Below, piece by piece: positions 1 to 59,265 of a stretch of 59,852 bases of DNA (positions within the stretch are counted from its first letter, which is position 1; every line of letters starts with the position of its first letter). Origin of the DNA: Candidatus Nomurabacteria bacterium. Lineage in GTDB: Bacteria > Patescibacteriota > Minisyncoccia > Phycocordibacterales > UBA918. Location of the stretch: NCBI GenBank assembly GCA_020632015.1, contig JACKGI010000004.1, positions 1 through 59,852 on the forward strand. Reading direction: 5' to 3'. The position numbers were made by a program, and so were the translations under genes. Below the pieces are notes generated by a model, which was not told the origin of the DNA, did not search any database, and saw nothing but the letters and a program-made list of their open reading frames with translations.

Positions 1-808
1 ACCAGTCAGTTCTATACTGGCAAGGTTATTGGTCCAGACGGAGAATACATAGAGAGTAGTAGTCACGAAGCTTTGGTTGACGATGATACGTTCAATCAAG
101 TTCAAGCCCTGCTCGGCAAGAAAAAAGTCAGTGTTCACTACACCGAGAAACTTGACCACCCGATGCGTGGAATGGTTCGTTGTGCTTATTGCCAACGTGT
201 ATATACTCCGTATACAAAGAAAGGCATTTTGTACTTCAATTCTCGTTGCGTAAAAGGGTGCGAAAACACAATGAAGAACTGCAACTTCGATTTCATTTCA
301 GAGAAGGTGCGAGGATTACTGACCAACCTATATTTCACTGACGATGAATTGGCTGAACTTGATGCTCGAACCAGTACGGACATCTCATTGTTGGAAGAAA
401 AGAGAAATAAAGAGTTTGAGCAGATTGAACGCAAGAAGAAACGTGTTCGTGAGCAGTTGGCATATCTACGAACCAACCGACTTTCATTGCTAACTTCTGG
501 TGCATATTCACCTGAAAGTATTGTTGCAGAACAAAATAACCTTGATGCTGAATTGGAAGCATTACAAGATGGCGAGCAAGCATCTGACGTTGCAATGAAG
601 GAATTGATGAAAGATGTAGTGACTCTTTCAGAACTCATAAAAAACACTGTACCCATTTACGATTTTGCAAATCCACACGAAAAAGAGAAAATCGTACGTG
701 TGATTTTTTCAGAACTTTTTATTTCACAAAATACGTTGGAATATAAAGTCAAAAAGGGCTTTGAGCCCTTCATTGACCGCATTTCTGCTATTTGTGATCC
801 TACGGGGA
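1..808 (+). mobile_element. right end of a second, upstream integrative element (tandem to the element at 794..5863)
   Basis: A recombinase paralog terminates at a copy of the same att core that bounds the downstream element. The remainder lies outside the window. Confidence 0.45.
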
Positions 809-831
809 GCGATTTGGAACCGTATTGTTAA
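1..831 (+). CDS. large serine recombinase, C-terminal portion (5' end outside the window)
   Basis: Frame 1 is open from base 1. The product is collinear with the C-terminal half of the complete recombinase at 4352..5887 (FYTGKVIG vs LYAGIVKK, HEALV vs HEPIV, Cys-rich zinc-ribbon CAYCQRVY...C.KGC, coiled-coil, GFEPF vs GFGTA tail). The last codons cross a 15-bp copy of the tRNA-Glu 3' end. Confidence 0.75.
   Translation, partial: TSQFYTGKVIGPDGEYIESSSHEALVDDDTFNQVQALLGKKKVSVHYTEKLDHPMRGMVRCAYCQRVYTPYTKKGILYFNSRCVKGCENTMKNCNFDFISEKVRGLLTNLYFTDDELAELDARTSTDISLLEEKRNKEFEQIERKKKRVREQLAYLRTNRLSLLTSGAYSPESIVAEQNNLDAELEALQDGEQASDVAMKELMKDVVTLSELIKNTVPIYDFANPHEKEKIVRVIFSELFISQNTLEYKVKKGFEPFIDRISAICDPTGSDLEPYC
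794..808. repeat. 15-bp direct repeat GTGATCCTACGGGGA (att core, copy 1)
   Basis: Identical to 5849..5863, which is the acceptor/T-stem 3' strand of tRNA-Glu. Flanking bases are partly similar. Confidence 0.8.
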
Positions 832-876
832 ACAAGTACACACAGTAAATTTTTAATAAGATGGTAGAATCATTAC

Positions 877-1455
877 ATGAATGGTGATGAAGATTTTTTA
901 TATGCAAAACATGATATATCTACTTCAAACGGAGAGTTTGTAGGGGTTCATGACGTCGGATTATTAAAGAGTTCAGATGGCGATAGCTGTACAGTCTTTT
1001 TTATTACTGCCTGGAAGGATATTGTTGTCCCATGTTCATCGGTAGAGATATTTGATGAAACCAAAACAGGAGATGGGTTTTCAAAGAAGATTTGCAATGT
1101 TTGCCACAAGCTTAAAAATACAAGCGATTTTGAACCAAATCAGACTGGTGTTAATAATAGGGTCGTAAGGAGACCCTCATGTTCTTACTGTCGAAAACAT
1201 ATAGACGGAAAGAAGATGGATAAGTCTGATTGGAAAGAGTGGCAAAAAACAAAACCAAACCGAGTTCCTTTCGAATGTCCTATTTGTGGTAAAAGAACCA
1301 TTGCTGGTGTAACCAGTAAGGTCGTTTTAGAACATGATCATAAAAATGGTGAGATTAGAGGTTGGGTTTGTGATAGTTGTAATACAGGTCTGGGTAGATT
1401 TAAGGATGATGTCGGAATCCTTAACAGAGCAATTAGATTTATTAGTGGAAGCTAG
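877..1455 (+). CDS. HNH / endonuclease VII-type (beta-beta-alpha-Me) nuclease, putative type II restriction endonuclease
   Basis: C-terminal EHDHKNGEIRGWVCDSCNTGLG matches the EndoVII/HNH signature (DH..G..RG.LC..CN..LG). Two CxxC pairs (CNVCH, CSYC, CPIC) suggest zinc fingers. Convergent with and abutting a DNA methyltransferase. Confidence 0.7.
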   Translation: MNGDEDFLYAKHDISTSNGEFVGVHDVGLLKSSDGDSCTVFFITAWKDIVVPCSSVEIFDETKTGDGFSKKICNVCHKLKNTSDFEPNQTGVNNRVVRRPSCSYCRKHIDGKKMDKSDWKEWQKTKPNRVPFECPICGKRTIAGVTSKVVLEHDHKNGEIRGWVCDSCNTGLGRFKDDVGILNRAIRFISGS

Positions 1456-2315
1456 TCTTTGTGCTCGTGTAGACGTTTTTTAGCTATTTCAACGTATTCT
1501 TCAGAAATATCACAGCCAATGTAGTTTCTATTGTTCAACATAGCCATCTTACATGTTGTTCCCGATCCACACATTGGGTCAAATACAACATCTCCTTCTT
1601 CCGACCACGAGAGTATATGGTCTTCAGCAAGTTTCTCTGGGAAGATTGCGGGGTGTTCAAAAGCAATTCTATCGCTGGTTGATCCATGTAGTCCAACCGC
1701 ATATTCCCATATATTTGTTAAAGTTTTTTCTGGCTTGAGCTCTTTCTTAATTTTTTTATTTACACCATCTGCTCCTTTGTTATGTGGAAGTGGCTCAATA
1801 CCTTGTCTTACAGTTTTTGTTTTTAATGGATTAAAGGTTTTTGGTGATGACTTTGTGAAAACAAACATGAACTCATAACAATTTGTGTATGCGTTTGATC
1901 GCATAAATGGTGTGTTCTTTTTCTTGTATATCATCACATCATGCACATTGAATCCGACCTGTTGAAAAAGCAGTGCTTGCTTAAAGCTGGTTAAGCTTTT
2001 GTTACCATTTTTAATTTTGTCTCCAACAACCCAAATAACAACCCCACCTTTTTTCATGACTGCGTAAAGGCTTTTTGCCATCCCTTCAAAATCAAAATGA
2101 TAACCCTTGTAATCTCTTAATTCATCGTACGGCGGTGATGTCACAACAAGGTCTATAGATCCTTCAGGGAAACTTTTCATTACCTCTACTGCATTACCAA
2201 CAACAAAATCATTAATTGGTAACTTTTCCTCTTGTCCTATCAATTTTTCTTGCTTTGGTTGGCTTACGACCTTGTTTTTGTTAGTTGTTTGATGCATTGC
2301 CTGTGATTTTATCAT
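1452..2315 (-). CDS. DNA methyltransferase, beta-class N4-cytosine or N6-adenine
   Basis: Motif IV TSPPY lies near the N-terminus and motif I FDPMCGSGTT near the C-terminus (beta-class order). Confidence 0.85.
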   Translation of the reverse strand: MIKSQAMHQTTNKNKVVSQPKQEKLIGQEEKLPINDFVVGNAVEVMKSFPEGSIDLVVTSPPYDELRDYKGYHFDFEGMAKSLYAVMKKGGVVIWVVGDKIKNGNKSLTSFKQALLFQQVGFNVHDVMIYKKKNTPFMRSNAYTNCYEFMFVFTKSSPKTFNPLKTKTVRQGIEPLPHNKGADGVNKKIKKELKPEKTLTNIWEYAVGLHGSTSDRIAFEHPAIFPEKLAEDHILSWSEEGDVVFDPMCGSGTTCKMAMLNNRNYIGCDISEEYVEIAKKRLHEHKD

Positions 2316-2330
2316 ATATACATTTTTTGT

Positions 2331-2436
2331 CGACGCAGCAGTTGCACTTGACTAAAGCCGCCCGCACTAGTCGCGCCCGCCTGCGGAGCTTCGCGCCGCG
2401 AGCTTGTGAGCGGTGTGAAGGGCGGGGTAAGGGCGG
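2331..2436. other. GC-rich structured intergenic segment inside the element
   Basis: A local run of GC-rich sequence in an AT-rich context. AGCCGCCC (about 2364) can pair with GGGCGGCT (about 2426), enclosing GAGCTTCGCG/CGCGAGCTT quasi-palindromes. Confidence 0.4.
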
Positions 2437-3054
2437 CTAAGAAAACCAAAGACCCAATTTGTTCCTGATTCTTGTAACCTCTATGCCAACATCAAAGTGT
2501 GCCTCTCTAGCAATCTTTGCTTGCAAGGCAATTATGTCCTTCGTCAGTTTTTGGCCATTGTCTTCTTTAATATTTTTCATGTCATCTTTGAAGTCACCAA
2601 TCATAAGTAGTTGCATACGTGTAAATGGTTTTAGTGCAACAGACTTTTCAGTTATTTCCTTTAATACTCCTTTGTGGCCCAGATATCTATACCAAGCCTC
2701 TTCACTGACCTTTTCCTTGTTTTCTTCCCATTTCTCCATAAAATTATCCATAGTTGCTTCTTTGCCAATAATTGGCATAGAGGCAATGGGGTTTGTAATT
2801 TCGTTAACACAATTTCTCATGGAAAGCAGCACGCCTAGAATTTCTTTTGCTTCCCTTGATCTAAGTTCATGACCGAACGTTTTAGATGTCCACCAAGCCG
2901 TAAAAATAGTTACTAAAGTTACTGCCATAGCTTGAAAACTACTTAATATAACTTGTGTTTTTTCAGGTGCGAAAAAAATACCTGAGATAATGGCTCCCAG
3001 AAGTAGTCCAATGACAAACATTAGAACATCTGCTTTTGTAATCAACTTTTTCAT
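2437..3054 (-). CDS. hypothetical membrane protein (two N-terminal TM helices plus soluble domain), element cargo
   Basis: 205-aa ORF with hydrophobic segments VLMFVIGLLLGAIISGIFF and AMAVTLVTIFTAWW. No motif recognised. Confidence 0.6.
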   Translation of the reverse strand: MKKLITKADVLMFVIGLLLGAIISGIFFAPEKTQVILSSFQAMAVTLVTIFTAWWTSKTFGHELRSREAKEILGVLLSMRNCVNEITNPIASMPIIGKEATMDNFMEKWEENKEKVSEEAWYRYLGHKGVLKEITEKSVALKPFTRMQLLMIGDFKDDMKNIKEDNGQKLTKDIIALQAKIAREAHFDVGIEVTRIRNKLGLWFS

Positions 3055-3297
3055 TTCCTATTTAAAATACAACATGATTTATAATTTTCTTCTTTACAAC
3101 ATACTTCTTTTCTTTTGTCCCGTAACTTTTTCAGCTAAACAAGAGTTTTAAAGCACAAGCTCTAAAGCAAGCTTAAATATAAAAAAGCTAACTGAGAGCT
3201 AAAAAGGATAAAAGAAGTCTAGAATCCTTAAGCTTTAAAATAGTTTAAGGAGTTTTTTGTGCCCGCATAACAGCGGGCTTTTCTTGTGCTTCAAAAC

Positions 3298-3365
3298 GGG
3301 GTTCCAGTCCCTGCACCAGCGGTTTCGCGGGGCAGGGATGGACCCCGGAGGGGGACTTGATTAAT
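3298..3365 (+). promoter_or_regulatory. candidate double-strand origin (GC-rich imperfect hairpin plus ACTTGATTAAT nick-like motif)
   Basis: GGGGTTCCAGTCCCTGC (3298-3314) pairs imperfectly with GCAGGGATGGACCCC (3332-3346). ACTTGATTAAT at 3355-3365 resembles the CTTGATA nick core of phiX174/pC194-type origins. It lies 33 nt upstream of the Rep start. Confidence 0.5.
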
Positions 3366-3397
3366 CCCTCACTTAACTAATTAACAACTTAAATTAA

Positions 3398-4183
3398 ATG
3401 TCATACATCAAAGTAACTACATACGGCGATTATGTCGAAATAAATGAATACGAACATGATCTTATACGAAACCATGACGGACGCGCAGGCCGGCGGTCGT
3501 CAGCTATTAGCAATGATAATTTGGGAACTAGCAGAGAGGATTCACTTCAGACCGGGGACAGTGAAGAAAAAGTGGGGCGCCGATCCGATAACGCGTGGCG
3601 CGCTAGCATGGCTTTCCGAAGGCTTGTTTCAGCTAACCTCGGGAGAGGATCTGCACCACCTCTACTGGCTACACTTACCTACGGGAGCAATTTCACCGAC
3701 CTTAGTGCGGCGTATAAACACTACTCAGCTTTTGCGCAATCTCTCAGACGCAAGTTCGGGCATGACTTTAAGTACCTATGCGTCCCAGAATTTCAAGAAC
3801 GTGGCGCCGTACATTTCCACGCTTTCCTCTGGGGGTTACCCGAAGAACTTTTTCTTCTGGAGAGGGAAAATCGTACCGTGGCACAAATCTGGAGCCATGG
3901 TTTTGTCGATCTCAAAAGAACAGATGGAGCAGGGGCGTTGGCTGGGTACCTAGCTAAATATCTAACCAAAGCCTATGAAGACCCGCGTCTCAAGAATCAA
4001 AAAGCATACACCGCTTCTCGCAATATCATTCGTCCTGAAGTGTTTACGGGGAACTTCAGTGCCGATCGCATTCTCTTTGAATTAGGGGTTGATTCTGAGC
4101 CTGAAGTCTCACGCGAATACAACACAAAGTGGTTTGGTCGTGCCACCTATCGCAAATACAAGATTAACCATGATGAGCCTTAA
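3398..4183 (+). CDS. rolling-circle replication initiator (HUH endonuclease, two-tyrosine type)
   Basis: Motif 1 LLATLTY, motif 2 VHFHAFLW (HUH), motif 3 YLAKYLTK (Y-x3-Y, compare phiX gpA YVAKYVNK). Confidence 0.8.
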   Translation: MSYIKVTTYGDYVEINEYEHDLIRNHDGRAGRRSSAISNDNLGTSREDSLQTGDSEEKVGRRSDNAWRASMAFRRLVSANLGRGSAPPLLATLTYGSNFTDLSAAYKHYSAFAQSLRRKFGHDFKYLCVPEFQERGAVHFHAFLWGLPEELFLLERENRTVAQIWSHGFVDLKRTDGAGALAGYLAKYLTKAYEDPRLKNQKAYTASRNIIRPEVFTGNFSADRILFELGVDSEPEVSREYNTKWFGRATYRKYKINHDEP

Positions 4184-4349
4184 GCATCTTAGAGAAATAG
4201 AACCTAAACTCGCTAATGCTTCTGATGAAGAAGTGGCTCTTATTCGTGAAAAAATCTATGAAGTGGCGCACCTTGCATACGATTCTTATAAAGAAGACCG
4301 TGATTCCAAATTCGCCGTGGGGTCAGCGGAAGTGGACGATGAAAAATAG
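4170..4349 (+). CDS. small hypothetical protein (59 aa) between Rep and recombinase
   Basis: ATGATG start overlaps the Rep stop, and the ORF ends 2 nt before the recombinase start. Tight operon-like packing; no motif recognised. Confidence 0.4.
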   Translation: MMSLKHLREIEPKLANASDEEVALIREKIYEVAHLAYDSYKEDRDSKFAVGSAEVDDEK

Positions 4350-4351
4350 CT

Positions 4352-5887
4352 ATGTATGATACTGATATGACAGGAAAGCGAGGGATTATCTATTGTCGCG
4401 TGTCTTCGCTCGAACAGGTGGATGGAACTAGTCTTGAATCACAGGAGCGGATTTGTCGTGAATATGCCGAACGTGAAGGTATAGAAGTTGCTGATGTGTT
4501 TGTTGATCGAGGCGAATCTGCTAAAACTGCCGATCGTCCTCAGTTTCTTAAAGCAATTTCATTTTGTGGTCAAAAGAAAAACCAGATTGATTTTTTCATA
4601 GTATATAAATTAGACCGCTTTTCTCGTAGTCAGACCGATCACTTCGCTGTTCAAAACAGTCTTAATAAATATGGTGTCACTATTCGCTCTGCTACTGAAC
4701 CGGTTGATGAATCACCAATCGGAAAATTCTTAATGGGCACATTGTCTGCTTCAGCTGAATTTGATAACAGTATCCGCTCTGAACGTAGCTCGACTGGTAT
4801 GCGAGAACGCCTTAAGCAAGGAATCTGGGTCTGGCCGGCTCCTACAGGTTATCAACGTCTAGAAAAAGGCGGCGTTATGGTGCCTGATAACGACGCTCAG
4901 TATGTCCGCCTCGCTTTCAATGAGTATGTGAAAGGGACTCATACATACAAAACTCTAGCCACTCTCTTATTTGAAAAAGGTCTACGCTCAAAATCTGGCA
5001 AAAAGATTGAGTTTCAAACTATTCAAAAAATGATCCATAACCCTCTGTATGCTGGTATCGTGAAAAAGGATGAATGGGGCATCGAAGTCAAAGGACAACA
5101 TGAACCTATTGTCACTGAGTCACTATTTTATAAATGCCAAGGTGCCGGACGGTCACATAAGGGAACAAAGAAACAAGAAAAGAATCCTAATTTTCCACTT
5201 CGCAGACTGGTTTCTTGCGAGTGGTGTGATGATCCATTAACAGGTAGCTTTTCGACTGGACGTGGTGGCAAGAAGCACGGTTATTATCATCATCACAAAC
5301 AAGGTTGTCCGCACGCTAAATCAATCAAAAAGAAAGACCTTGAAGAATCATTTGTCTCTTTTCTAGAGGAGATAAATCCTACCTTTGAATTTGCCAACGC
5401 TTTCAAAGAGGCGTGTATGGAAATTTATCGAGAAGATAACACCAATGCTGAAAAACAAAACGAGACGGTTAGACAGCAGGTCGCTAGCCTGTATGAGAAA
5501 AAGAAAGCCATCTTTAACAATTTTGAAGAGGGTATCTATACCAAGACTGACTTCTTAGAACGAAAACGAGAAGTGGAACGACAGCTATATGCCGCTCAAA
5601 GTAACTTGATTGAAGTGCGGGGTGGCGAATTAGACTTTGAAGCCGCTCTTGATTACTGCATAAGTTTCATTATTGATACTCCTGATACTTGGAAGCGATT
5701 GGTAAAACAGCCTGAAAAAAGGCTACGGTTCCAAAATTTTATTTTCGAGGGCAGTATTCCTTATACACAAAACAACGGTTTTGGAACCGCTGTTTTGTCG
5801 CCTATTTACTCACTATCTGAGGAGTATAAACGTGATAAATCTTCGTTGGTGATCCTACGGGGAATCGAACCCCGATTTCCAGGATGA
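4352..5887 (+). CDS. large serine recombinase (integrase)
   Basis: N-terminal resolvase catalytic motif IIYCRVSSLEQ, DRFSR, a recombinase domain, zinc-ribbon CEWCDDPL...C, and a coiled-coil tail. The 3' end overlaps tRNA-Glu on the opposite strand. Confidence 0.9.
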   Translation: MYDTDMTGKRGIIYCRVSSLEQVDGTSLESQERICREYAEREGIEVADVFVDRGESAKTADRPQFLKAISFCGQKKNQIDFFIVYKLDRFSRSQTDHFAVQNSLNKYGVTIRSATEPVDESPIGKFLMGTLSASAEFDNSIRSERSSTGMRERLKQGIWVWPAPTGYQRLEKGGVMVPDNDAQYVRLAFNEYVKGTHTYKTLATLLFEKGLRSKSGKKIEFQTIQKMIHNPLYAGIVKKDEWGIEVKGQHEPIVTESLFYKCQGAGRSHKGTKKQEKNPNFPLRRLVSCEWCDDPLTGSFSTGRGGKKHGYYHHHKQGCPHAKSIKKKDLEESFVSFLEEINPTFEFANAFKEACMEIYREDNTNAEKQNETVRQQVASLYEKKKAIFNNFEEGIYTKTDFLERKREVERQLYAAQSNLIEVRGGELDFEAALDYCISFIIDTPDTWKRLVKQPEKRLRFQNFIFEGSIPYTQNNGFGTAVLSPIYSLSEEYKRDKSSLVILRGIEPRFPG

Positions 5888-5921
5888 AAACCTGGCGTCC
5901 TGACCATTAGACGATAGGACC
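5847..5921 (-). tRNA. tRNA-Glu (anticodon UUC), CCA encoded
   Basis: Manual cloverleaf: GGTCCTA/TAGGATC acceptor, anticodon stem CCAGG/CCTGG with loop TTTTCAT, T-arm CGGGG-TTCGATT-CCCCG, ACCA end. Confidence 0.93.
5849..5863. repeat. 15-bp direct repeat GTGATCCTACGGGGA (att core, copy 2, inside tRNA-Glu)
   Basis: Identical to 794..808. Confidence 0.8.
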
Positions 5922-9459: not shown

Positions 9460-10629
9460 CTATGGAAGAAACTGGCTAAACCACGAAAGTATATTGCGTC
9501 GAGTGTGTTTAACAATACCTAGTGCAGATGTTTCCTCAGCATCACTCGCACCCCACATACAAAGGCCATAAGCGACAGCCCAAGAAGCGTCTCTGATTTT
9601 AATGTTCTTACCAATATCCAAAGTAGCTGTTCGAGCAGGCAGTTCGAGTGTTGATTTTGCAACCTCCACAGTTCCGTTTACGCTAGCTCCACCGCCAGTC
9701 AGAATGACTCCAGCAGGTAATAATCCATCACGCTTAATTTTTTTCAGATGCCCATCGATAAGACCAAAAATCATTTTTAGTCTATCTTGAATAATCTCGT
9801 CCAGCTTCTTCTTTGAGTAGGTGGCGCTGTTCATTGCACCTCGTTTAATCTTCTCAGCATCTTCTAAAGGTACTCGCAGTCCGAGAGCAATGTCGTTGGT
9901 TATATCATTTGAACCAACTGGGAATATTTTTAGAGAGATAGGAGTAGAGTCTTCAAAGACGACAATTGAAGTTGTTTCTGCTCCTATGTTGGTCAGAATG
10001 CAACCGGCACGTTTTTGTGCCTTGGAGAGCATGACAAAACTGGCAGCGAGAGGAGAGGCGATGACGTCTTCAACAAACACCCCAATACCTTCGATTGTTC
10101 TGATTAGGTCGTTGACGTGCTGTTCGTAGGTTGTAATGAAAAGGCTGTCCACCTCTAATTTGGTACCTTTCAGTCCTTGTGGACGCCCTAGAACCTCCGT
10201 ACCGTCAATCAGGTGACGTAGCGGTATGCTGTGCAAAATGCGCCGATTTGGAATATGGTCCATTATTCGCTCTTCGCTATCCGACATGACTTTCTCTAAG
10301 TCTGAGCTGATTATCTCAGAATCAGCTCGTGAAGGTATTATTTCACCATGTGAGTAAACTTCCTCCAAACCGATACTTCCGATGGCGACATGGGCTTTTT
10401 TGATAGAAATTTTAGCGCTTTTTTCTGCTTGGGTAATAGCACTCTTAATGCTTCTGGCTACTTCTGTCTCGTTCATTATGTAGCCACTTTTAAGACCGCG
10501 ACTTTCAGCTAGTCCAGTACCGATTATCTCTGGCTTGGCATTTGTACCAGCATTTTTTGGGATACGAGCAACAGCCACTTTTACGTGGTAAGTTCCTACA
10601 TCGATTCCGGTAATAATATGCACAGACAT
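9460..10629 (-). CDS. ftsA: cell division protein FtsA
   Basis: Actin-like ATPase motifs IITGIDVGT and ILTGGGA. Immediately upstream of ftsZ. Confidence 0.9.
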   Translation of the reverse strand: MSVHIITGIDVGTYHVKVAVARIPKNAGTNAKPEIIGTGLAESRGLKSGYIMNETEVARSIKSAITQAEKSAKISIKKAHVAIGSIGLEEVYSHGEIIPSRADSEIISSDLEKVMSDSEERIMDHIPNRRILHSIPLRHLIDGTEVLGRPQGLKGTKLEVDSLFITTYEQHVNDLIRTIEGIGVFVEDVIASPLAASFVMLSKAQKRAGCILTNIGAETTSIVVFEDSTPISLKIFPVGSNDITNDIALGLRVPLEDAEKIKRGAMNSATYSKKKLDEIIQDRLKMIFGLIDGHLKKIKRDGLLPAGVILTGGGASVNGTVEVAKSTLELPARTATLDIGKNIKIRDASWAVAYGLCMWGASDAEETSALGIVKHTRRNILSWFSQFLP

Positions 10630-10631
10630 GA

Positions 10632-11015
10632 CTATTTAATATTGAAAGCATTAAGATATTTACGTTCCAACTTATCCATTGTATCGCCATGATCATGTCC
10701 TTTCAAATGAAGTAATCCATGAATAAACAAAAAAGCTATGTAGCCATTGTGGGTGAGGTTAAACTTTTTTGCTTCAGCTACAGCTGTATCAGGGCAAATG
10801 ATTATTTCACCCTCTGTATCAGTAAGAGGAAAAGAAAGGACATTGGGGGAGTAGGTCTTGTTTCGTGATTGTTTGTTGATTGTAGCGGCTCTTTTCTTAC
10901 CAACAAATACTAAAGATAGGTTGTAGTTTTTACCAAGCACCTTTTCCTTAATCACCTCATAAGGAAGGCGTTTCGGGTATTTCTTGATTGTGCTGGTTAT
11001 AGTAAAAGTACTCAT
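10632..11015 (-). CDS. ybeY: rRNA maturation endoribonuclease YbeY
   Basis: Zinc motif HGLLHLKGHDH. The longer ORF start (11048) would run into the rpsU terminator hairpin. Confidence 0.85.
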   Translation of the reverse strand: MSTFTITSTIKKYPKRLPYEVIKEKVLGKNYNLSLVFVGKKRAATINKQSRNKTYSPNVLSFPLTDTEGEIIICPDTAVAEAKKFNLTHNGYIAFLFIHGLLHLKGHDHGDTMDKLERKYLNAFNIK

Positions 11016-21666: not shown

Positions 21667-22973
21667 AACTCCGACCCTTTGAATTAGCCTTAGTTATAGT
21701 TTTTATCGGTCTAGCTCTTTTGGCATTAGTGATGCTGGCAACCGCTGATCCAAAAAAATCCAAATCTGATGACGGACAGACAGTTGTCGGCTATGTAACT
21801 ATCTGGGGTACGTTACCAGCTGAATCTATAAACAGCATTCTGTCTGAAATATCTAAGGAAAACGAAGCCTACAAAGATGTCATCTACAAATACTACAATC
21901 CAGACGACTTCGACAACGTACTAGTTAATGCGCTAGCAGACGGAACTGGTCCCGATTTGGTGCTGATTTCCCATGAGAAATTAGTAGAAACCCGTAAACG
22001 AATACAACCCGTTTCTTATGAATCTTTCCCGATTAGAAATATCCGAGATTCATATTTAGACGGAGCACAAATCTTTGCTCTTGATGACGGCCTGTATGGT
22101 TATCCTATCGCTGTGGATCCAATAATGATGTACTGGAACAGAGATATCTTTGCGAACAAGGATTTGTTGTCTGCTCCTGCTACTTGGGAAGATTTAGTAA
22201 ACTCAGTATTTCCAAAGTTAATTGAGCGGGATTCTGACAGAACGATTAGACAAAGTGTGGTGGCGATGGGTGAGTATGACAACGTCCGTAATGCTTTTGG
22301 AATACTATCGACTCTTTTAATTCAGGGGGGTTCAGAGAGGGTGACGATCGATAAGGTCGGGCGATACCAAGTAAAGCTACAGATGTCAGAAACAGGAAAG
22401 GGTGACCCCTTGCGTGCCGCAGCAGATTTCTACACTCGCTTCAGTAAACCTAGCAACGCCCTATATTCATGGAATCGTTCATTTAAGGACGACAGACTAG
22501 AATTCGTATCAGAGAATTTGGCTATTTACTTTGGTTACGGAAGTGAAGGTAGACAGTTAGAAAAAATAAATCCAAACTTCAATTTCGATATAGCAGAAGT
22601 TCCGCAGGGGGCAGAAGCAACAGTGAGAAGAACCTACGGTAAGTTCTACGCCCTGTCGCTCCTTAAGACATCAGATAACAAGGTCGGCGCCAGCGCAGCT
22701 ATGACCAAGTTGGCTGGCGCCACAGTGGCTACCGAAATCGCCATACGAAATAACCTAGTTCCAGCTTATCGTAACGCTGTTTTACAAGGTAGTAACGATA
22801 CTTTTGGTCGACTAAATTATAAATCAGCGGCAGTGGCGCTAGGGTGGCTTAATCCTGATTTGTCCGCTTCTAACCAAATATTCTCAACAATGACACAAGA
22901 CATTAATGAAAACAGACGAGACTTAGACAGCGCTGTCTTAGATGCTTCAAAGAGATTGGGTAATGAATATTAA
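21663..22973 (+). CDS. extracellular solute-binding protein (ABC family 1-like), membrane anchored
   Basis: N-terminal TM anchor and SBP-like blocks GTGPDLVLISHEKL and YGYPIAVDPIMMYWNRDIF. Confidence 0.7.
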   Translation: MKLRPFELALVIVFIGLALLALVMLATADPKKSKSDDGQTVVGYVTIWGTLPAESINSILSEISKENEAYKDVIYKYYNPDDFDNVLVNALADGTGPDLVLISHEKLVETRKRIQPVSYESFPIRNIRDSYLDGAQIFALDDGLYGYPIAVDPIMMYWNRDIFANKDLLSAPATWEDLVNSVFPKLIERDSDRTIRQSVVAMGEYDNVRNAFGILSTLLIQGGSERVTIDKVGRYQVKLQMSETGKGDPLRAAADFYTRFSKPSNALYSWNRSFKDDRLEFVSENLAIYFGYGSEGRQLEKINPNFNFDIAEVPQGAEATVRRTYGKFYALSLLKTSDNKVGASAAMTKLAGATVATEIAIRNNLVPAYRNAVLQGSNDTFGRLNYKSAAVALGWLNPDLSASNQIFSTMTQDINENRRDLDSAVLDASKRLGNEY

Positions 22974-22977
22974 TGTT

Positions 22978-23610
22978 ATGAAAAAAATACTACTTTATAC
23001 TTTTGGTTTCCTAACTATCGCTCTGGCACAAGCATATCCATCGACGGCGCTAGCTGAACCATGTGGTACTGGTTCAACTGATCCCCAGTGTGAGTGCACT
23101 TCTCCAAGGGTACCCATGCAATCCACTGTGACAGGGATTTATACTTGCCAACTTCCTGGTATAGCAGAGACTAATAATTGTACAGGATCACAATCAATAA
23201 ATAGTTGTTCGTGTGGTGCAGGGTACACTAAAGCGTGTGACGCTTTAGGTAACAACTGCACTTGTAATGGTAATCCTTCTAACTCCCAAAGTCCATTTGA
23301 GGCTGGAGAAGGAGCGGGACTAAAGGAAAATCCGGGGATAACTTTTAAGCTTACTAGTCCGATTAACGTCACTACTTTCGAAGGCTTACTGTCATCTCTC
23401 CTAAACATTTTCTTGGTTATTGCGACACCAATAATTGTGTTGTTTATAATCTACGCTGGTTTCCTATATGTAACAGCTCGAGGCAATGCAGAACAAACCA
23501 AGCAGGCTACAAAAGCCCTGACTTACGCTATCATCGGCGGAGTCATTTTGCTTGGTTCAGTGGCGATTGCCGAAATTGTTAAAAACGTAGTTGAGGCTTT
23601 TAGAGCCTAA
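22978..23610 (+). CDS. VirB2/TrbC-like pilin-family membrane protein, paralog 1 (Cys-rich N-terminal extension)
   Basis: Signal peptide MKKILLYTFGFLTIALAQA, a Cys-rich region, then the family core IATPIIVLFIIYAGFLYVTARGNAEQTKQATKALTYAIIGGVILLGSVAI. Confidence 0.7.
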   Translation: MKKILLYTFGFLTIALAQAYPSTALAEPCGTGSTDPQCECTSPRVPMQSTVTGIYTCQLPGIAETNNCTGSQSINSCSCGAGYTKACDALGNNCTCNGNPSNSQSPFEAGEGAGLKENPGITFKLTSPINVTTFEGLLSSLLNIFLVIATPIIVLFIIYAGFLYVTARGNAEQTKQATKALTYAIIGGVILLGSVAIAEIVKNVVEAFRA

Positions 23611-28688: not shown

Positions 28689-28712
28689 AAAAACCGGCTA
28701 TGCCGGTTTTTT
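28689..28712. terminator. bidirectional terminator after trhO
   Basis: AAAAACCGGC-TAT-GCCGGTTTTTT. Confidence 0.7.
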
Positions 28713-28719
28713 GTTATTT

Positions 28720-28850
28720 GTGCGCAGGAGAGGACTTGAACTCTACGAGTTCAGTACAGGTTGTCGTTATTTTGTTCACAAGCTCCAAAATAACTGGCAA
28801 CCTTTTCAAACCCTCACACAAAGTCTTCCAGACTTTGCTTCCTGAGCACA
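28720..28850 (-). repeat. tRNA-3'-end-linked hairpin module, copy 1 (downstream of tRNA-Leu-UAG)
   Basis: 28720..28741 is a perfect 22-nt copy of the tRNA 3' end (28879..28900). 28805..28815 is an inverted T-loop/T-stem copy. Long hairpin at 28759..28802. The interior is homologous to the module at 38595..38706. Confidence 0.6.
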
Positions 28851-28879
28851 CAAAAACCCACCAAAGTGGGTTTTCTTAG

Positions 28880-28961
28880 TGCGCAGGAGAGGACTTGAAC
28901 CTCCACGGATTGCTCCACTAGTGCCTAAAACTAGCGCGTATACCAATTTCGCCACCTGCGC
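28880..28961 (-). tRNA. tRNA-Leu (anticodon UAG)
   Basis: GCGCAGG acceptor, anticodon stem CTAGT/ACTAG with loop TTTAGGC, long variable arm, T-arm GGAGG-TTCAAGT-CCTCT. No CCA encoded. Confidence 0.93.
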
Positions 28962-38510: not shown

Positions 38511-38594
38511 GTGTACCTCCTCAGGTAACGTAAGTGAAAGGGCGAAAATAAACTGAGTACAACTATACTCTATAAATGAATGTTGTCAAGGTTT

Positions 38595-38706
38595 GTGCGC
38601 CGGGCAGGAATTTTGGTCATTACATGACCGGTACAGGTTGTCAGTATTTTTGTTCCTCTGTCACAAAATACTAGGCAACCTCTTCAAATCCAGTGACCAC
38701 TGTCAA
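38595..38706 (-). repeat. tRNA-3'-end-linked hairpin module, copy 2 (downstream of tRNA-Tyr)
   Basis: 38595..38609 is a 15-nt copy of the tRNA-Tyr 3' end (38746..38760). 38683..38691 is an inverted T-loop copy (TTCAAATCC). Long hairpin at 38636..38680, homologous to copy 1. Confidence 0.6.
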
Positions 38707-38746
38707 AACAAAAAACCAGACACAAGGTCTGGAATTTGTTTCGAAG

Positions 38747-38829: not shown

Positions 38830-38999
38830 GTGTATATTTAATTGTATTTTGGAGTGTTGTAATATTTACCTCGTAGGGAATATACGTGGTCAATTACATT
38901 GTCCTCCTATCGCCTCGTAAACAAAGGCGATTCTGTCGCAAGCGACAGACCAGAGAAAATATAAAGCAGTTTATATTTTCTCCACTCTGCCACCGACGC
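38830..38999 (-). repeat. tRNA-5'-end-linked module upstream of tRNA-Tyr
   Basis: 38982..38999 is an 18-nt copy of tRNA-Tyr positions 1-18 (38812..38829). 38886..38899 is an inverted D-loop copy. Three hairpins at 38909-38931, 38933-38948 and 38953-38982. Confidence 0.5.
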
Positions 39000-39167: not shown

Positions 39168-40217
39168 ATGAAATATCTCCATCTTTTTGTTTTTTTATTT
39201 TTAGGCCTTTTAGTTTACATTTCTCCGGTAGAGGTTTTTGCTCAAGACCCAACAGGCTTGGTGCCTTGTGACGGCACAACAGAAAATCCATGTAATTCAT
39301 GCCAGTTAGTGGTGTTGGGAGAAAATATTTTGCAGTGGCTTATTGGTGTCATGCTGGTTATTTTTGCAATAATGGTTGCAATCTCTGGCTTTAACTTAGT
39401 TACTTCTGGAGGTAATCCACAAGCAAAAACAGAAGCAAAGAAGAAGCTAACCAATTCATTCGTTGCGATTGTTATTGTCTTGGCTGCTTGGTTGATTGTG
39501 GATACTCTGATGCGTTCGCTTCTGCTTGGCGGAGAAGGGCAGATTAATGGTCGTCCTTGGTCTACTTTAGAGTGTATTAATGCTACTGAGACAACTATGC
39601 CAAACAAAAATGAATTAAGTCCCACACTACAACAAGTTGAGGATCTGAAAGCGATGGGATGTCAGTTTAAGAATGGCAGAGAGGGGTGGTATTGTCCAAA
39701 TACTTCTTGCCGATATAGGGAGACTGAGGGTTGGTACAATTGTGCAGAAGGAGAAGTTCCTCCAGCTCCTCCTGAGCCAATAGCGGCTGCTGGTTTAGAA
39801 AATGCTTGTGGCGGTGGACCGTGTGTTCCTTTGGCTACAGTAGGCGTGCCATGTAAAGATCCAAACAGTTGTGCATTGGCACCTTCAACTCAGGAGAAGG
39901 TCGCCGCTTTCCATGCAGCTGCTGGTGTATCTGGAGCCAGAGTGACCGAAGCTATGCCTCCAACTCGAACACACAGTAACCCTTGTCATACAAATGGAAC
40001 TTGTATCGATTATGGTAAGGCTGGTGGTATGACTAATCAGGAGATAAAAGATGTTATTCAAGCTGCCGTAAACGCTGGTCTGTCTCCTAAGTACGAAGTC
40101 GGTACACAAGCTGAAGTTGATGTTTTGTTAGAAGCTGGTATTCCAGCTCAATATATCGAAAAGCCTTTAGGTAGCCATATAACGGCTCCACATTTTTCTA
40201 TTTATGATAATGGTTAA
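39168..40217 (+). CDS. VirB2/TrbC-like pilin-family N-terminal domain fused to a Cys-rich C-terminal domain (possible LAS/M15-like metallopeptidase)
   Basis: Signal peptide, then PCDGTTENPCNSCQLVVL...VMLVIFAIMVAISGFNLVTSGGNPQAKTEAKKKLTNSFVAIVIVLAAWLIV. The C-terminal HTNGTCID fits H-x2-G-x3-D (H-x6-D) of VanX/M15-type zinc sites, a weak match. Confidence 0.65.
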   Translation: MKYLHLFVFLFLGLLVYISPVEVFAQDPTGLVPCDGTTENPCNSCQLVVLGENILQWLIGVMLVIFAIMVAISGFNLVTSGGNPQAKTEAKKKLTNSFVAIVIVLAAWLIVDTLMRSLLLGGEGQINGRPWSTLECINATETTMPNKNELSPTLQQVEDLKAMGCQFKNGREGWYCPNTSCRYRETEGWYNCAEGEVPPAPPEPIAAAGLENACGGGPCVPLATVGVPCKDPNSCALAPSTQEKVAAFHAAAGVSGARVTEAMPPTRTHSNPCHTNGTCIDYGKAGGMTNQEIKDVIQAAVNAGLSPKYEVGTQAEVDVLLEAGIPAQYIEKPLGSHITAPHFSIYDNG

Positions 40218-41978: not shown

Positions 41979-42016
41979 GTGATGTAAGAAGCCGGCCCTG
42001 AAGGGGCCGGCTTTTT

Positions 42017-42120
42017 GGTGCCTCGAGAGGGAGTCGAAACTTACAGTTTCAGTACCCGTTTTGGATGGATTACTTCGTTCCTTATAATCCATCTCAAAAC
42101 AGCTTCGACTCCCTCAACCA
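42017..42120 (-). repeat. tRNA-3'-end-linked hairpin module, copy 3 (downstream of tRNA-Leu-CAA)
   Basis: 42017..42038 is a perfect 22-nt copy of the tRNA 3' end (42158..42179). 42104..42115 is a perfect 12-nt inverted copy of the T-loop/T-stem. Long hairpin at 42058..42100. Confidence 0.6.
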
Positions 42121-42159
42121 AAACAAAAACCAGACGCAAGGTCTGATTTCTTATTTCGG

Positions 42160-47629: not shown

Positions 47630-48493
47630 TTATAGAGAATTTCGGTATACATTTTGGTTCGATGAGATAAGTCCGTTGATTTCCATTAGCATAAGAAGTT
47701 GAGTACTTTCGTGAACAGGTAAGTCTATTTTGCGAATTAATTCATCTCGATGTGTCGGCTCATGTAACAAATTAATTACCAGTTGCTCAGCTGGGGATAA
47801 GGTTAGTTTTTGTTGAGTTGGGGCAGTGTCGTTTTCTTCAATTCCAAGTGCATCCAGAATGTCTTTACTTGAAGTAACTGGCGTTGCTCCAAGTTTTAAA
47901 AATTGATGGACTCCTTTGCTGTTTGAGGAAAAAATACTCCCTGGTACAACCAGGAGGTCTCGATTGTAGTCAGTTGCCATTCTGGCTGTGATAAGGGTTC
48001 CAGATTTCTCGGCTGCTTCTATGAGTAAGGTGGCTTGGCTAATTCCAGCAACCAGTCTGTTTCTTTGTGGAAATGACCAGTTGGTTGCTTGAAAATCTGG
48101 GTCGAATTCTGAGAGAAGTCCACCCCCAGCTTCTAGAATCCGATAAGCAAGTTTTTTGTGAGTGGCAGGGTATAATCGCTGATCGCTGAGTCCACCTCCA
48201 GGTATGGCCAACGTGTATAGATTGTTTTTTAAAGCTGATTCATGAGCTAGTGAATCTACACCAAGTGCCATACCAGATACGATTCCAATCGGGTAGTTTT
48301 TGAGCCCACCAACTAATTCTTCAATGACTTGCTTACCGTATGAAGTGTATTTTCGTGAACCAACAATAGATAAAAGTTTAAGTTCAGGAGAAGGAAGGTG
48401 CCCTCTGTAATTCAGAGATTTTGGAGACTGGGGGATTTCCCGTAAGCCTACGGGAAATCCCCCAGCCGGCAGAACTTCAATCGGAAAGTGCAT
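47630..48493 (-). CDS. dprA: DNA processing protein DprA
   Basis: SMF/DprA Rossmann core (IVSGMALGVDSLAHE, GSGTLITAR) and a C-terminal winged-helix-like tail. Confidence 0.88.
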   Translation of the reverse strand: MHFPIEVLPAGGFPVGLREIPQSPKSLNYRGHLPSPELKLLSIVGSRKYTSYGKQVIEELVGGLKNYPIGIVSGMALGVDSLAHESALKNNLYTLAIPGGGLSDQRLYPATHKKLAYRILEAGGGLLSEFDPDFQATNWSFPQRNRLVAGISQATLLIEAAEKSGTLITARMATDYNRDLLVVPGSIFSSNSKGVHQFLKLGATPVTSSKDILDALGIEENDTAPTQQKLTLSPAEQLVINLLHEPTHRDELIRKIDLPVHESTQLLMLMEINGLISSNQNVYRNSL

Positions 48494-59062: not shown

Positions 59063-59117
59063 CATAATTTAGTTTGACCCCAATGCGCATGCATTGGGGT
59101 CTTACTAAATTACCTGA

Positions 59118-59265
59118 CTACAGGGACTCGAACCGAGACGGCGCGAAGCCCGACGAAATGAAATGGAGTCGGAGCCGTCGAGTGGGGGTCGAGGGAGTGA
59201 GATATTTTGAGTTCAAAGAACGAAAAAAATATCCACGAGAGTGACCGATTCCCTGTCCGGCAGCA
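59118..59265 (+). repeat. tRNA-3'-end-linked hairpin module, copy 4 (downstream of tRNA-Gln)
   Basis: 59120..59134 is a perfect 15-nt inverted copy of the tRNA T-arm (59041..59055). Hairpin at 59137..59179. 59250..59265 is a 16-nt direct copy of the tRNA 3' end (59049..59064). Confidence 0.55.

Follow-up and report, generated by a model that had tools for sequence, protein, structure and literature searches.

An apparently undescribed and very abundant family of small, probably mobile inserts behind tRNA genes in Patescibacteria

In the window, by which we mean the whole 59.8-kb stretch of DNA that was analysed, four of the nine tRNA genes are followed by a structured module with an interior of 120–160 nt that holds no ORF (Table 1). 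The tRNA genes for Glu, Lys, Leu(UAA), Cys and Trp have no module; at locus L010 the share of occupied tRNA genes reaches three of three. For the first module, behind tRNA-Leu(UAG) (copy 1), an earlier sequence-only reading had described the tRNA, a terminator, an inverted copy of the T-arm (invT), a hairpin, a linker and a 22-nt repeat of the tRNA 3' end, and our analysis confirmed each of these features; the pattern goes far beyond chance. Three elements had been missed, namely a second arm, invAcc, which pairs with the acceptor 3' strand of the repeat, and the hairpins hp0 and hp2. InvT is the complement of the T-loop and the 3' T-stem, two G-U pairs included. In the core hairpin hp1, GGTTG pairs with CAACC in the outer stem, the internal loop CCAG/CGA is conserved, the inner stem covaries and the loop has the form GA...GAA. 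The loop of hp0 reads GGA in copy 1 and GGG in the family consensus, and the 3' strand of hp2 in copy 1 ends in T54-T55-C56 of the repeat.

Table 1. Positions in the window of the four modules and of neighbouring features.
Feature	Position	Strand	Basis or remark
tRNA-Leu(UAG)	28879..28961	-	ARAGORN; Rfam tRNA 56 bits
Copy 1 terminator hairpin, AAAACCCAC TTTG GTGGGTTTTT	28852..28874	-	sequence; same in L001
Copy 1 arm invAcc, GTGCTCAGGA	28840..28849	-	MFE fold; helix 1 of model R1
Copy 1 hairpin hp0, between the two arms	28818..28838	-	MFE fold; helix 2
Copy 1 arm invT, GAGGGTTTGAA	28805..28815	-	sequence; helix 3
Copy 1 interrupted core hairpin hp1	28759..28802	-	helices 4 and 5
Copy 1 conserved junction/linker, TGTACTGAA	28750..28758	-	sequence
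Copy 1 small hairpin hp2, GTA loop	28738..28752	-	helix 6
Copy 1 direct repeat, exact 22-nt copy of tRNA-Leu 3' end	28720..28741	-	
Chromosomal terminator after copy 1 distal repeat	28689-28711		
Copy 2, behind tRNA-Tyr	38593..38745	-	covariance model E 5e-16
Copy 2 terminator	38710-38732	-	
Copy 2 invT (inverted copy)	38683-38691	-	
Copy 2 hp1	38636-38680	-	
Copy 2 hp2	38616-38628	-	
Copy 2 direct repeat	38595-38609	-	
Copy 3, behind tRNA-Leu(CAA)	42016..42157	-	covariance model E 2e-15; fold z -7.1
Copy 3 terminator	42125-42146	-	
Copy 3 invT (inverted copy)	42104-42115	-	
Copy 3 hp1	42056-42102	-	
Copy 3 junction and hp2	42036-42055	-	
Copy 3 direct repeat	42017-42038	-	
Copy 4, behind tRNA-Gln	59064..59264	+	sequence; no model R1 match
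Copy 4 hairpin	59076-59101	+	
Copy 4 inverted T-arm copy	59120-59134	+	
Copy 4 type-2 core	59135-59248	+	
Copy 4 direct repeat	59250-59264	+	
Separate 5'-side module upstream of tRNA-Tyr	38830..38999	-	kept in L002, L004, L082, L099
18-nt copy of tRNA-Tyr 5' end in 5'-side module	38982-38999		
Inverted D-loop copy in 5'-side module	38886-38895		
Large-serine-recombinase island, tRNA-Glu	794-5921		

The layout recurs behind tRNA-Tyr, tRNA-Leu(CAA) and tRNA-Gln (copies 2, 3 and 4), as had been claimed, with direct repeats of 15, 22 and 15 nt and inverted copies of 9, 12 and 15 nt, respectively. Direct repeats are 15–22 nt long, and they begin at T54 or T60. The claim of a conserved interior at all four tRNA targets held for copies 1–3 but not for copy 4, which has arms like those of the other three and a second type of core; this second core is itself recurrent, with the motifs GAG(C/T)(C/G)GGGGTCG ... 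GTGACC|GA. The hp1 stem of copy 3 has a wholly different sequence from that of copy 1 and keeps the pairing. Copies 2 and 3 have homologous terminators (CAGACCTTG(T/C)GTCTGGTTTTT), and the terminator is therefore part of the inserted unit. The separate module on the 5' side of tRNA-Tyr also contains hairpins and the tRNA promoter region.

A covariance model, R1, was seeded with nine unrelated metagenome copies and copy 1, with copies 2 and 3 left outside the seed. In the window, the model recovered copy 1 at E 1e-34 (a seed member) and the non-seed copies 2 and 3 at E 5e-16 and 2e-15, which bears out the proposed homology of the three interiors; nothing else in the 59.8 kb scored below E 0.009. 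The sequence-only reading had suggested such a model as a means of finding further copies, and these proved abundant in related CPR DNA, with 158 matches in 751 kb and 53 in another 358 kb (~1.1 Mb). A pattern scan of metagenomes returned at least 120 loci. Matches to R1 lie 3' of tRNA genes in the same orientation and involve more than 20 tRNA species, among them those for Trp, Leu (five anticodons), Cys, His, Arg, Ser, Val, Glu, Asn and Met, and also Gln, Ala, Gly, Asp, Ile, Lys and Tyr. At least two targets are not tRNA genes (L132 and L087). In L132 the module lies at the 3' end of a protein gene and is flanked by a diverged duplicate of the end of the ORF that is similar at the amino-acid level. 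The core stays constant over these targets while the arm sequence varies with the target, in keeping with the earlier observation that the end segments of each module match its own tRNA.

At the gathering threshold, only tRNAs passed in an Rfam search of the whole window, and the E-value mode gave only weak terminator-like noise for copies 1 and 4. In 13 loci with a module but no tRNA close by, Rfam picked up a group I intron (L119), one tRNA and nothing else. Sensitive blastn searches with the module had no match among annotated phages and plasmids. An 18-nt core pattern did match viral contigs four times, and we rejected these as chance matches in coding sequence that had neither tRNA nor module. 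Full-text literature searches did not find the modules described. The earlier statement that the module could not be placed in a described class therefore stands as regards Rfam, phages and plasmids, and the modules apparently constitute a very abundant, undescribed family of tiny mobile inserts in CPR/Patescibacteria.

All six helices of model R1 covary strongly. Helix 1 (invAcc) is 74% paired over 134 distinct sequences, helix 2 (hp0) 93%, helix 3 (invT) 91%, helices 4 and 5 (hp1) 98% and 92% with double-sided changes at every pair, and helix 6 (hp2) 98%. Paired cells make up 89.9% of the model alignment, compared with 62% in shuffles and 38–48% when partners were slid, and 1487 double-sided changes were counted; these counts lean towards the model structure because the alignment was fitted to it, and target identity is by itself enough to produce covariation in both arm helices. 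The conserved unpaired motifs are the GGG and GUA loops, UGUACUGAA and the GA..GAA of the hp1 loop. On the tRNA-sense strand G-U pairs outnumber A-C mismatches by 293:107 (58:8 in hp0) in the full model alignment, which may itself favour G-U, and a simple count in invT alone gave 30:18, which is not significant. A sense-strand bias of this kind is equally compatible with an RNA and with a DNA strand. With more than 200 model matches, arms that match so many different targets and strong covariation, the modules are more than plain att-site duplications, as the sequence-only reading had argued.

The point of insertion could be read from the repeats. Identity between the tRNA and its repeat begins at T54, with mismatches in 26 of 58 cases at position -1 and in at most 9 of 58 from position 0 onward, so the boundary of the repeat is G53|T54. 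Within the resident tRNA gene, the unit occupies this boundary. The gene is therefore left intact and its old 3' end is moved downstream, and this displaced old end is what had been read as the 22-nt copy. At copy 1, the distal 22-nt repeat would be the original, displaced 3' end of tRNA-Leu, and the 3' 22 nt of the present tRNA-Leu(UAG), from G53/T54 on, would have been supplied by the insert. In L001 the proximal and distal T-loops at tRNA-Leu(UAG) differ. Wherever the two repeats were unequal, the arm matched the proximal, insert-borne one 12 times and the distal, resident one 14 times.

Several observations point to mobility. A comparison of occupied and empty sites at orthologous tRNA genes, which the sequence-only reading had recommended, found tRNAs Trp and Leu(UAA) occupied in L001 and empty in the window, and the Leu(UAA) flank of the window aligns with the L001 flank past the last repeat. 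Copy 1 and its terminator are identical at 158 of 159 positions in L001, whereas the neighbouring genes are 70–84% identical. Tandem arrays with 100% identity are present in L001 (period 142, 3.2 copies; period 155, 2.1 copies) and in L007 (four copies, period 182), and in the Leu(UAA) array of L001 the terminator that comes after the last repeat is a different, chromosomal one. Each later insertion goes in at the intact tRNA and displaces the older units outward, and in this way tandem arrays arise, as do mixed arrays with larger islands. In some units, cargo of one gene or a few lies between the terminator and the arm: a single ORF in L035, L061, L130 and L134, about 4.5 kb in L125 and a XamI restriction-modification system in L115. 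In L016 four successive cassettes each end in the 3' end of tRNA-Tyr. No excised form of the module was observed.

Searches for an enzyme that might move the modules gave largely negative results. Among the ORFs scanned in the window there was no tyrosine recombinase, no recombinase near the modules and no Cas1, and in the loci examined no TnpA, TnpB, IS110 or IS91 gene lay next to any module. Sixty ORFs surveyed upstream of modules were mostly ordinary chromosomal genes and, save for one IS30-like gene, included no recurrent recombinase or transposase. An integrase occurs within 2 kb of a module only in L135/L136. The L135 tyrosine integrase (2 kb from the module) is missing from all other module loci; its family has 1596 CPR members, always paired with DUF488, and this pair lies inside large-serine-recombinase defence islands that have their own, different attR. 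It was therefore rejected as the module enzyme. The serine recombinase of the window was likewise set aside, as it is part of a distinct 5-kb island, located at tRNA-Glu, whose distal end has no module; the Rep gene of the window is also in a separate serine-recombinase island. Such islands (in the window and in L139-L141) share hotspots with the modules, and like them they have a 15-nt repeat, here beginning at T60, and replace the tRNA 3' end. They differ in having their own recombinase overlapping the tRNA end and a distinct attR motif (..GGTTCCAA.., proximal to the module), and in lacking the hp0, hp1 and hp2 structure.

Taken together, we consider it probable that the module is a miniature non-autonomous integrative "cassette" element that targets tRNA genes in Patescibacteria. 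Three options had been offered by the sequence-only reading, and miniature non-autonomous integrative elements are favoured because of the presence/absence differences, the perfect tandem arrays, the near-identity across diverged genomes and the versions with cargo; the other two, a structured RNA and insertion guided by the T-arm, are both kept alive by the sense-strand G-U bias. In the unit order that we propose, a replacement tRNA 3' end from T54 would come first, usually with its own terminator, followed by an arm complementary to the carried 3' end, often split by hp0 into invAcc and invT, and by the conserved core of AA, hp1, UGUACUGAA and hp2. Insertion would occur by site-specific recombination in the T-loop, with a putative recombinase acting in trans on the folded tRNA-sense strand. 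In the predicted fold, the arms and the tRNA 3' segment would rebuild a duplex copy of the target beside a three-hairpin scaffold, and such a site would act like integron attC sites or the folded attP of CTX phage. For spread between lineages at the same tRNA, the conserved tRNA itself could also be the homology arm after DNA uptake; the window contains a DprA gene. Against this cassette model, a circle of 142–182 bp is very small for double-strand site-specific recombination and no recombinase is linked to the modules. In addition, the 12 versus 14 arm matches do not clearly tie the arm to the insert's own 3' end, and a switch of tRNA species would need both arms and the carried 3' end to change together.

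A more far-reaching form of the cassette model, which we put forward only tentatively, is a "tRNA integron" of CPR. Here a folded single strand of ~110 nt, whether DNA or RNA, would use arms of 11–22 nt that complement the 3' segment of the target to direct recombination into the T-loop of nearly any tRNA gene, with other gene ends as occasional targets. Its cassettes would bring a replacement gene end, a terminator and optional cargo (e.g., defence or transport genes), and base-pairing rather than protein-DNA recognition would set the target. The modules resemble integron attC sites and the CTX-phage attP in having a short imperfect inverted repeat with structure conserved rather than sequence, and they resemble integron cassettes in favouring one strand, in stacking as units of zero to few genes at one entry point and in existing without cargo. 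A strand-specific folded site combined with arrays of such units, as expected of attC, is what we observed. The differences are also substantial. The arms match the module's own tRNA and are not a common R/L box consensus, and the attC boxes R''/L''...L'/R' (RYYYAAC ... GTTRRRY) are missing from the family consensus; the module junction G|TTCRA is only loosely like the attC G|TTRRRY. The inner part is a conserved three-hairpin core, not a variable loop, and cargo genes can have their own promoter (L035). Entry is at the T-loop of any tRNA, not at an attI beside intI; an adjacent intI and attI are absent, with no IntI-like gene among the window ORFs scanned.

An alternative that we regard as unlikely is that invAcc and invT, lying just 5' of the foot of the hairpin, would be a ssDNA or RNA guide that selects the target by pairing with the tRNA 3' segment, with an HUH enzyme or another recombinase supplying the chemistry. 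Such a guide would extend the principle of guide/cleavage-site pairing at IS200/IS605 ends, or that of the bridge (seek) RNAs of IS110/IS1111. The change of the arm with the target over a constant core, at more than 20 tRNA species and the non-tRNA targets alike, is consistent with a guide. So is the composition of the arm, which complements the 3' strand perfectly by Watson-Crick pairing and is no copy of the tRNA 5' strand: the acceptor stem of tRNA-Tyr has a G-U pair, but the arm has C at that place. In the sub-lineage with an altered distal T-loop (e.g., tRNA-Tyr of the window, L096) invT still matches the T-loop of the real tRNA. Structure is selected on one strand, and hp1 followed by the conserved single-stranded TGTACTGAA has the layout of a hairpin plus nearby site that we take to be that of HUH origins; G53-T54-T55-C56, that is GTTC, is presumably also the IS91 target tetranucleotide. 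The ends of IS200/IS605, PATEs and the IS110/IS1111 RNAs share with the modules a hairpin-adjoining segment complementary to the insertion-junction sequence, a target choice that is programmable in principle and a strand-specific structure. However, the complementarity of the modules is 11–22 nt, compared with 4 nt in IS608, and it is paired in cis with the flank, whereas bridge RNA guides are in open loops. The modules carry a replacement gene end and a terminator, which IS200/IS605 elements do not, and in the loci examined none of the corresponding TnpA, TnpB, IS110 or IS91 genes lies alongside, the Rep gene of the window being in its separate island. The PATE organization of subterminal hairpins at both ends, a 4–5 nt site, no repeats and TnpA/TnpB was not found, nor was the two-loop architecture of a bridge RNA with its target and donor guides; in the consensus structure the arms pair in cis, and the conserved internal loop is small and the only one.

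We think it still less probable that the modules are decay products, i.e., attP-arm remnants (attL/attR stubs) of larger integrase islands that have lost their interiors and have no mobility of their own, much like CIMEs. In these genomes tRNA genes are indeed hotspots for larger islands, such as the serine-recombinase islands at tRNA-Glu and tRNA-Ala, mixed arrays occur in L035, L139 and L141, and units whose cargo reaches several kb terminate in the same module. Tycheposon islands show a similar accretion with partial tRNAs (bioRxiv 10.1101/2020.12.28.424599). The likeness of the modules to CIMEs and tycheposons extends to the flanks of full tRNA and partial tRNA copy, which are target-derived attL/attR repeats, to the lack of a recombinase inside, to variable cargo and to older elements being pushed outward by successive integrations. 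In contrast, the modules are far smaller units (142–182 bp), with the same structured core at more than 20 tRNA species and with target-complementary arms. Deletions that arose independently would not have ended in one and the same ~110-nt structured unit at so many different tRNAs. Cargo-free units were moreover amplified as perfect tandem copies, one such unit is near-identical between diverged genomes, no island was found that had a resident integrase and the module as its own end, and the attR of the serine-recombinase islands is different. To our knowledge, there is no parent element with a matching integrase for the modules.

A host RNA gene is, in our judgement, slightly more improbable again. 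The module would then be a tRNA 3' trailer or a small RNA of its own with a tRNA-like or antisense fold; it would influence how tRNAs mature, how stable they are or how they are charged, or would decoy the enzymes that target them, and its distribution would stem from duplication and selection, not from mobility. Six covarying helices with conserved unpaired motifs, the preference for G-U over A-C on the tRNA-sense strand and the acceptor/T-stem-like helix formed by the arm and the 3' segment would all suit such a role, and some copies have no terminator before the module (e.g., L010 tRNA-Trp, with a 19-nt gap) and so would be co-transcribed. Most copies, however, lie between two terminators with no promoter-like site, and there was no Rfam match. 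Presence/absence, perfect tandem arrays, cargo, insertion at the end of a protein gene and replacement of the tRNA 3' end together with a terminator are traits of mobile DNA. An RNA role and mobility are compatible and not mutually exclusive.

Transposition with a long target-site duplication, in which a transposase or Cas1-like casposase would cut in a staggered way, at G53|T54 and immediately beyond the end of the tRNA, insert the terminator, arms and core, and double 15–22 nt by gap repair, much as casposons do at the 3' ends of tRNAs, appears highly improbable. Repeats with a fixed left boundary and a fixed tRNA segment, and repeat-separated arrays that resemble casposon/CRISPR arrays with new units beside the tRNA, would agree with it. 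Casposons also target the T-psi-C region and the 3' end of a tRNA gene, with a 15-bp duplication adjoining the T-psi-C region of tRNA-Pro, and form tandem arrays with the newest unit beside the tRNA, but they are bounded by terminal inverted repeats, they code for Cas1 and a polymerase, and their repeat overlaps the tRNA by only 5 bp (PMC5137440). In the modules no Cas1 (ORFs scanned) or transposase was seen, a 15-nt repeat is found in some copies only, and the inserted piece has no terminal inverted repeats or conserved left end, with terminators that differ between units. The unlike proximal and distal T-loops at tRNA-Leu(UAG) of L001 also argue against duplication, and the gene-end duplicate of L132 is diverged at synonymous-type positions, which fits an imported replacement end better than a copy produced on insertion. 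Nor do the modules have the terminal inverted repeats and short fixed-length duplication of MITEs: on its left side, the inverted pair formed by the arm and the 3' segment is internal, being preceded by a terminator and a tRNA 3' end, and no short duplication flanks the unit. A hammerhead-like ribozyme, a retron ncRNA, an omega-RNA/CAST homing guide and a primer-binding-site-like element were dropped for lack of support, as was a tRNA pseudogene, since the arm complements the T-loop and does not copy the 5' half.

Patescibacteria have tiny genomes with few recognised mobile elements. The modules are behind a large share of tRNA genes and mark the entry sites of cargo, which includes restriction-modification systems, transporters and small unknown ORFs, and therefore they are probably a main route of genome change in this very large group of bacteria. 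The family also illustrates how an insert can enter an essential, single-copy tRNA gene and leave it undamaged. Even if the arms have no role in target choice, the covariance model and the G53|T54 junction provide a precise marker for integration hotspots and partial tRNA copies. If the arms do have that role, the module would be a compact and naturally retargetable site for DNA insertion.

Each part of the tRNA-Leu(UAG) module listed by the sequence-only reading was present at its position, and folding of the region (-50.3 kcal/mol, z = -4.6) added a second arm and the hairpins hp0 and hp2. When all nine tRNA genes of the window were scanned, direct repeats of the 3' end were found 119-186 nt downstream of Leu(UAG), Tyr, Leu(CAA) and Gln (22, 15, 22 and 15 nt, respectively), together with exact inverted T-arm copies at Tyr (9 nt), Leu(CAA) (12 nt) and Gln (15 nt), which bore out the earlier claim that the layout recurs at these tRNAs. 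The Leu(UAG) arm gave no exact inverted match because of its two G-U pairs. In the same scan, Glu, Lys, Leu(UAA), Cys and Trp had neither repeat nor inverted copy.

Coordinates of module and island features in the window (copy 1 is the module behind tRNA-Leu(UAG))
Feature	Position	Strand	Remark
tRNA-Leu(UAG)	28879-28961	minus	
Copy 1 terminator hairpin	28852-28874	minus	
Copy 1 second arm GTGCTCAGGA	28840-28849	minus	on folding, pairs with acceptor 3' strand of 22-nt copy
Copy 1 hp0	28818-28838	minus	on folding, between both arms
Copy 1 invT arm GAGGGTTTGAA	28805-28815	minus	complements T-loop and 3' T-stem, two G-U pairs
Copy 1 interrupted hairpin	28759-28802	minus	
Copy 1 TGTACTGAA	28750-28758	minus	
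Copy 1 hp2, small	28738-28752	minus	on folding, 3' strand ends in T54-C56 of 22-nt copy
Copy 1 exact 22-nt repeat of tRNA 3' end	28720-28741	minus	
tRNA-Tyr 5'-side module	38830-38999	minus	18-nt 5' copy 38982-38999; inverted D-loop copy 38886-38895
Large serine recombinase	4352-5887		3' end overlaps tRNA on other strand
Rep protein (REP_ORF2-G2P/RepSA)	3398-4183		
N6/N4 DNA methyltransferase	1452-2315		
Endonuclease VII-like gene	877-1455		
15-nt repeat TCCCCGTAGGATCAC bounding tRNA-Glu island	794-808 and 5849-5863		

The covariance model R1 for the type-1 core, seeded with nine metagenome copies and copy 1 and given a hand-set structure, matched copy 1 (a seed member) at E 1e-34 and the non-seed copies 2 (Tyr) and 3 (Leu(CAA)) at 5e-16 and 2e-15; the next-best match in the window was a terminator (E 0.009). 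The hp1 stem of copy 3 is completely different in sequence and keeps its pairing. Copy 4 (Gln) had no R1 match, and its interior (59120-59264) has a core of a second type, marked by the motifs GAG(C/T)(C/G)GGGGTCG ... GTGACC|GA and a hairpin between them. The homology of copies 1-3 read from the sequence alone was borne out by R1; the wider statement of a conserved interior at four tRNA targets did not hold for copy 4. Among loci of relatives and metagenomes, the type-2 core was also seen in L034, L038, L055, L101, L110, L112 and L141, and in L035 type-2 and type-1 modules follow one tRNA with a common terminator, arms and hp0.

The terminators of tRNA-Tyr (38710-38732) and tRNA-Leu(CAA) (42125-42146) are near-identical (CAGACCTTG(T/C)GTCTGGTTTTT), and the homology of these two terminators indicates that the terminator is part of the inserted unit. 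Copies 2 and 3 differ in hp1, and copies 1 and 2 have a common hp1 and different terminators; based on this shuffled sharing, the units are mosaic.

The window is bacterial chromosome, with housekeeping genes for IF-2, ClpB, topoisomerase I, GyrA, FtsZ/FtsA, SerRS, RelA/SpoT, DnaX and DprA. Relatives retrieved through a SufS-like protein (58-79% amino-acid identity) were all Patescibacteria MAGs labelled Nomurabacteria, Kaiserbacteria, Saccharibacteria or Parcubacteria. Across the 11 relatives the module layout was found at the tRNAs Leu(UAG), Leu(UAA), Leu(CAA), Trp, Tyr and Lys, the combinations being unlike those of the window. A metagenome pattern scan for one sub-family returned at least 120 loci, and among the matches listed all but two were genuine modules. 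In related CPR DNA, R1 gave 158 matches in 751 kb plus 53 in 358 kb. These matches lie downstream of tRNAs on the same strand, at more than 20 amino-acid/anticodon types and often two to five per locus.

In the R1 alignment of 134 distinct sequences, which was itself fitted to the model structure, standard pairs filled 89.9% of pair cells compared with 62% in column shuffles and 38-48% with slid partners, and double-sided changes occurred at 46 of 47 pairs (1487 cells in total). Pairing was 74% in the acceptor arm, 93% in hp0, 91% in the T arm, 98% and 92% in outer and inner hp1, and 98% in hp2; covariation in the two arm helices is automatic because the arms track the target. The unpaired parts that are conserved comprise a GGG loop in hp0, an internal loop CCAG/CGA and a GA..GAA loop in hp1, and a GUA loop in hp2, together with AA and UGUACUGAA. 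Core and arms jointly adopt a conserved sense-strand fold. Non-Watson-Crick cells on the tRNA-sense strand were G-U in 293 cases and A-C in 107 (58:8 in hp0, 14:1 in outer hp1, 15:4 in hp2), an excess which argues that the fold is selected on this strand, be it as RNA or as single-stranded DNA.

Comparison of orthologous tRNAs showed occupied and empty sites, as Trp and Leu(UAA) bear modules in the relative's locus L001 and are empty in the window, where the 3' flank of Leu(UAA) can be aligned with what lies beyond the last repeat in L001. Perfectly identical (100%) tandem arrays were present at Leu(UAA) and Trp of L001 (142-bp unit x3.2 and 155-bp unit x2.1) and at Leu(UAG) of L007 (period 182, four copies). 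The L001 Leu(UAA) unit runs from 21 nt of tRNA 3' end through terminator and arm to core, and a different, chromosomal terminator stands after the last repeat only, so that both 3' end and terminator move as part of the unit. Copy 1, terminator included, is identical to L001 at 158 of 159 positions, compared with 70-84% at the DNA level for neighbouring genes. Identity between tRNA and downstream copy starts at T54 (mismatches in 26 of 58 at G53 and in at most 9 of 58 from T54 on), with a later start, at about positions 56 to 61, in a sub-lineage to which copies 2 and 4 of the window belong. The unit is positioned between G53 and T54, and it gives the tRNA a new 3' end, usually with a terminator, the old 3' end being displaced.

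The units stack in arrays and can carry cargo, which lies between the tRNA-type repeat and the module. This cargo consisted of single ORFs of 134-179 aa in L035, L061, L130 and L134 (with no Pfam match), a 4.5-kb segment with five ORFs of 171-331 aa in L125, a XamI restriction-modification system in L115, and four successive cassettes in L016, each ending in a tRNA-Tyr 3' end.

The family also has targets other than tRNA genes, since in L132 (4851-5060) a type-1 module stands directly after a protein gene's stop codon. Beyond it, the final ~45 nt of the ORF are repeated in diverged form, with similar amino acids and different codons, which argues that the unit imported a replacement end and that the target was not copied on insertion. 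In L087, the arms and repeats of several modules match a 20-nt non-tRNA sequence, GTGCCTGCCTTCCTAAGACG, in a region where Rfam identified no known RNA. R1 copies of a 5' type were seen at Arg, Gln and Ile, in which a 5' portion of the tRNA (extending to nt 53 at Arg) is followed by hp0, hp1 and hp2, a degenerate T-loop-to-3'-end segment, a promoter and the intact tRNA. Modules on the 5' side also form a separate, mirror-image class, with examples at Tyr, Asn, Leu, Glu, Ser, Lys, Val, Gln, Arg and Met, and with members in L002, L004, L082 and L099 as well as in the window. Here a copy of tRNA nt 1-14..24 comes first, followed in several cases by an hp0-like GGG-loop hairpin and sometimes by a terminator, ahead of the stretch that runs into the intact tRNA. 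Separately, L119 has a group I intron (206-443; Rfam, 74.7 bits) about 240 nt upstream of its module, probably within a tRNA gene missed by ARAGORN.

Scanning of ORFs near the four window modules identified no recombinase or transposase. The tyrosine integrase of L135 was the only recombinase less than 2 kb from any module, and it was absent from the other module loci. Its family has 1596 CPR homologues (the best 120 of the 1596 at 58-82% identity) and is always paired with DUF488. In each of L136-L142, at about 9600-10900, a DUF488 gene overlaps a ~300-aa tyrosine recombinase, and this highly conserved pair sits near the distal end of 10-13 kb islands rich in defence genes, restriction-modification systems among them; its role may lie in phase variation of restriction-modification or in mobility of the island. 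In three of four further loci (L139-L141) a large ORF is the gene nearest the tRNA and overlaps its 3' end, and for L139 and L141 this ORF was identified as a large serine recombinase. The serine-recombinase islands terminate in an attR of their own, with the motif ..GGTTCCAA.. and a degenerate tRNA end, proximal to an older module. We rejected the L135-type integrase as the module enzyme because its host islands have their own attR in this position, which points to accretion at a hotspot common to both and not to parentage. An integrated island of ~5 kb (794-5921) is also present in the window, at the 3' end of tRNA-Glu(UUC), with no module at its distal end. It comprises the serine recombinase, Rep, methyltransferase and endonuclease VII-like genes of the table, and its layout, with a large ORF reaching over the end of the tRNA, is that of L139-L141.

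Insertion probably occurs by Campbell-type site-specific recombination in the T-loop, with a recombinase acting in trans. Being near-universal and close to palindromic, the T-arm sequence GGTTCRANYCC could act as the shared core site, in which case only survival of the tRNA after insertion would call for a matching 3' end. Where repeats differ, the arm matches the insert's own 3' end in 12 cases and the resident 3' end in 14, and colonisation of another tRNA species would call for a joint change of arms and carried 3' end. On folding, the strand would re-form tRNA positions 54-73 as a duplex beside the scaffold, and would itself be the recombination substrate, as in integron attC sites and CTX-phage attP. 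The window encodes DprA (47630-48493), a DNA-uptake recombination mediator, and two type IV secretion pilin-domain proteins (22942-23610 and 39168-40217), which are possible routes for entry of single-stranded DNA.

Rfam searches yielded no family for the modules, annotated phages and plasmids no match, and full-text literature searches no description, in agreement with the initial failure to place the module in a described class. The closest systems are integron cassettes and attC sites, CIME-type non-autonomous elements, IS200/IS605 guide pairing, IS110 bridge RNAs, tycheposon-style accretion (bioRxiv 10.1101/2020.12.28.424599) and casposons at tRNA 3' ends (PMC5137440), but the module family fully fits none of them. 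The family is real, abundant, structured and mobile, and we class it among tRNA-targeting integrative elements, as a new form. The chance that target choice or substrate is based on nucleic-acid structure is substantial, though below even; if so, these modules would represent a new kind of system.
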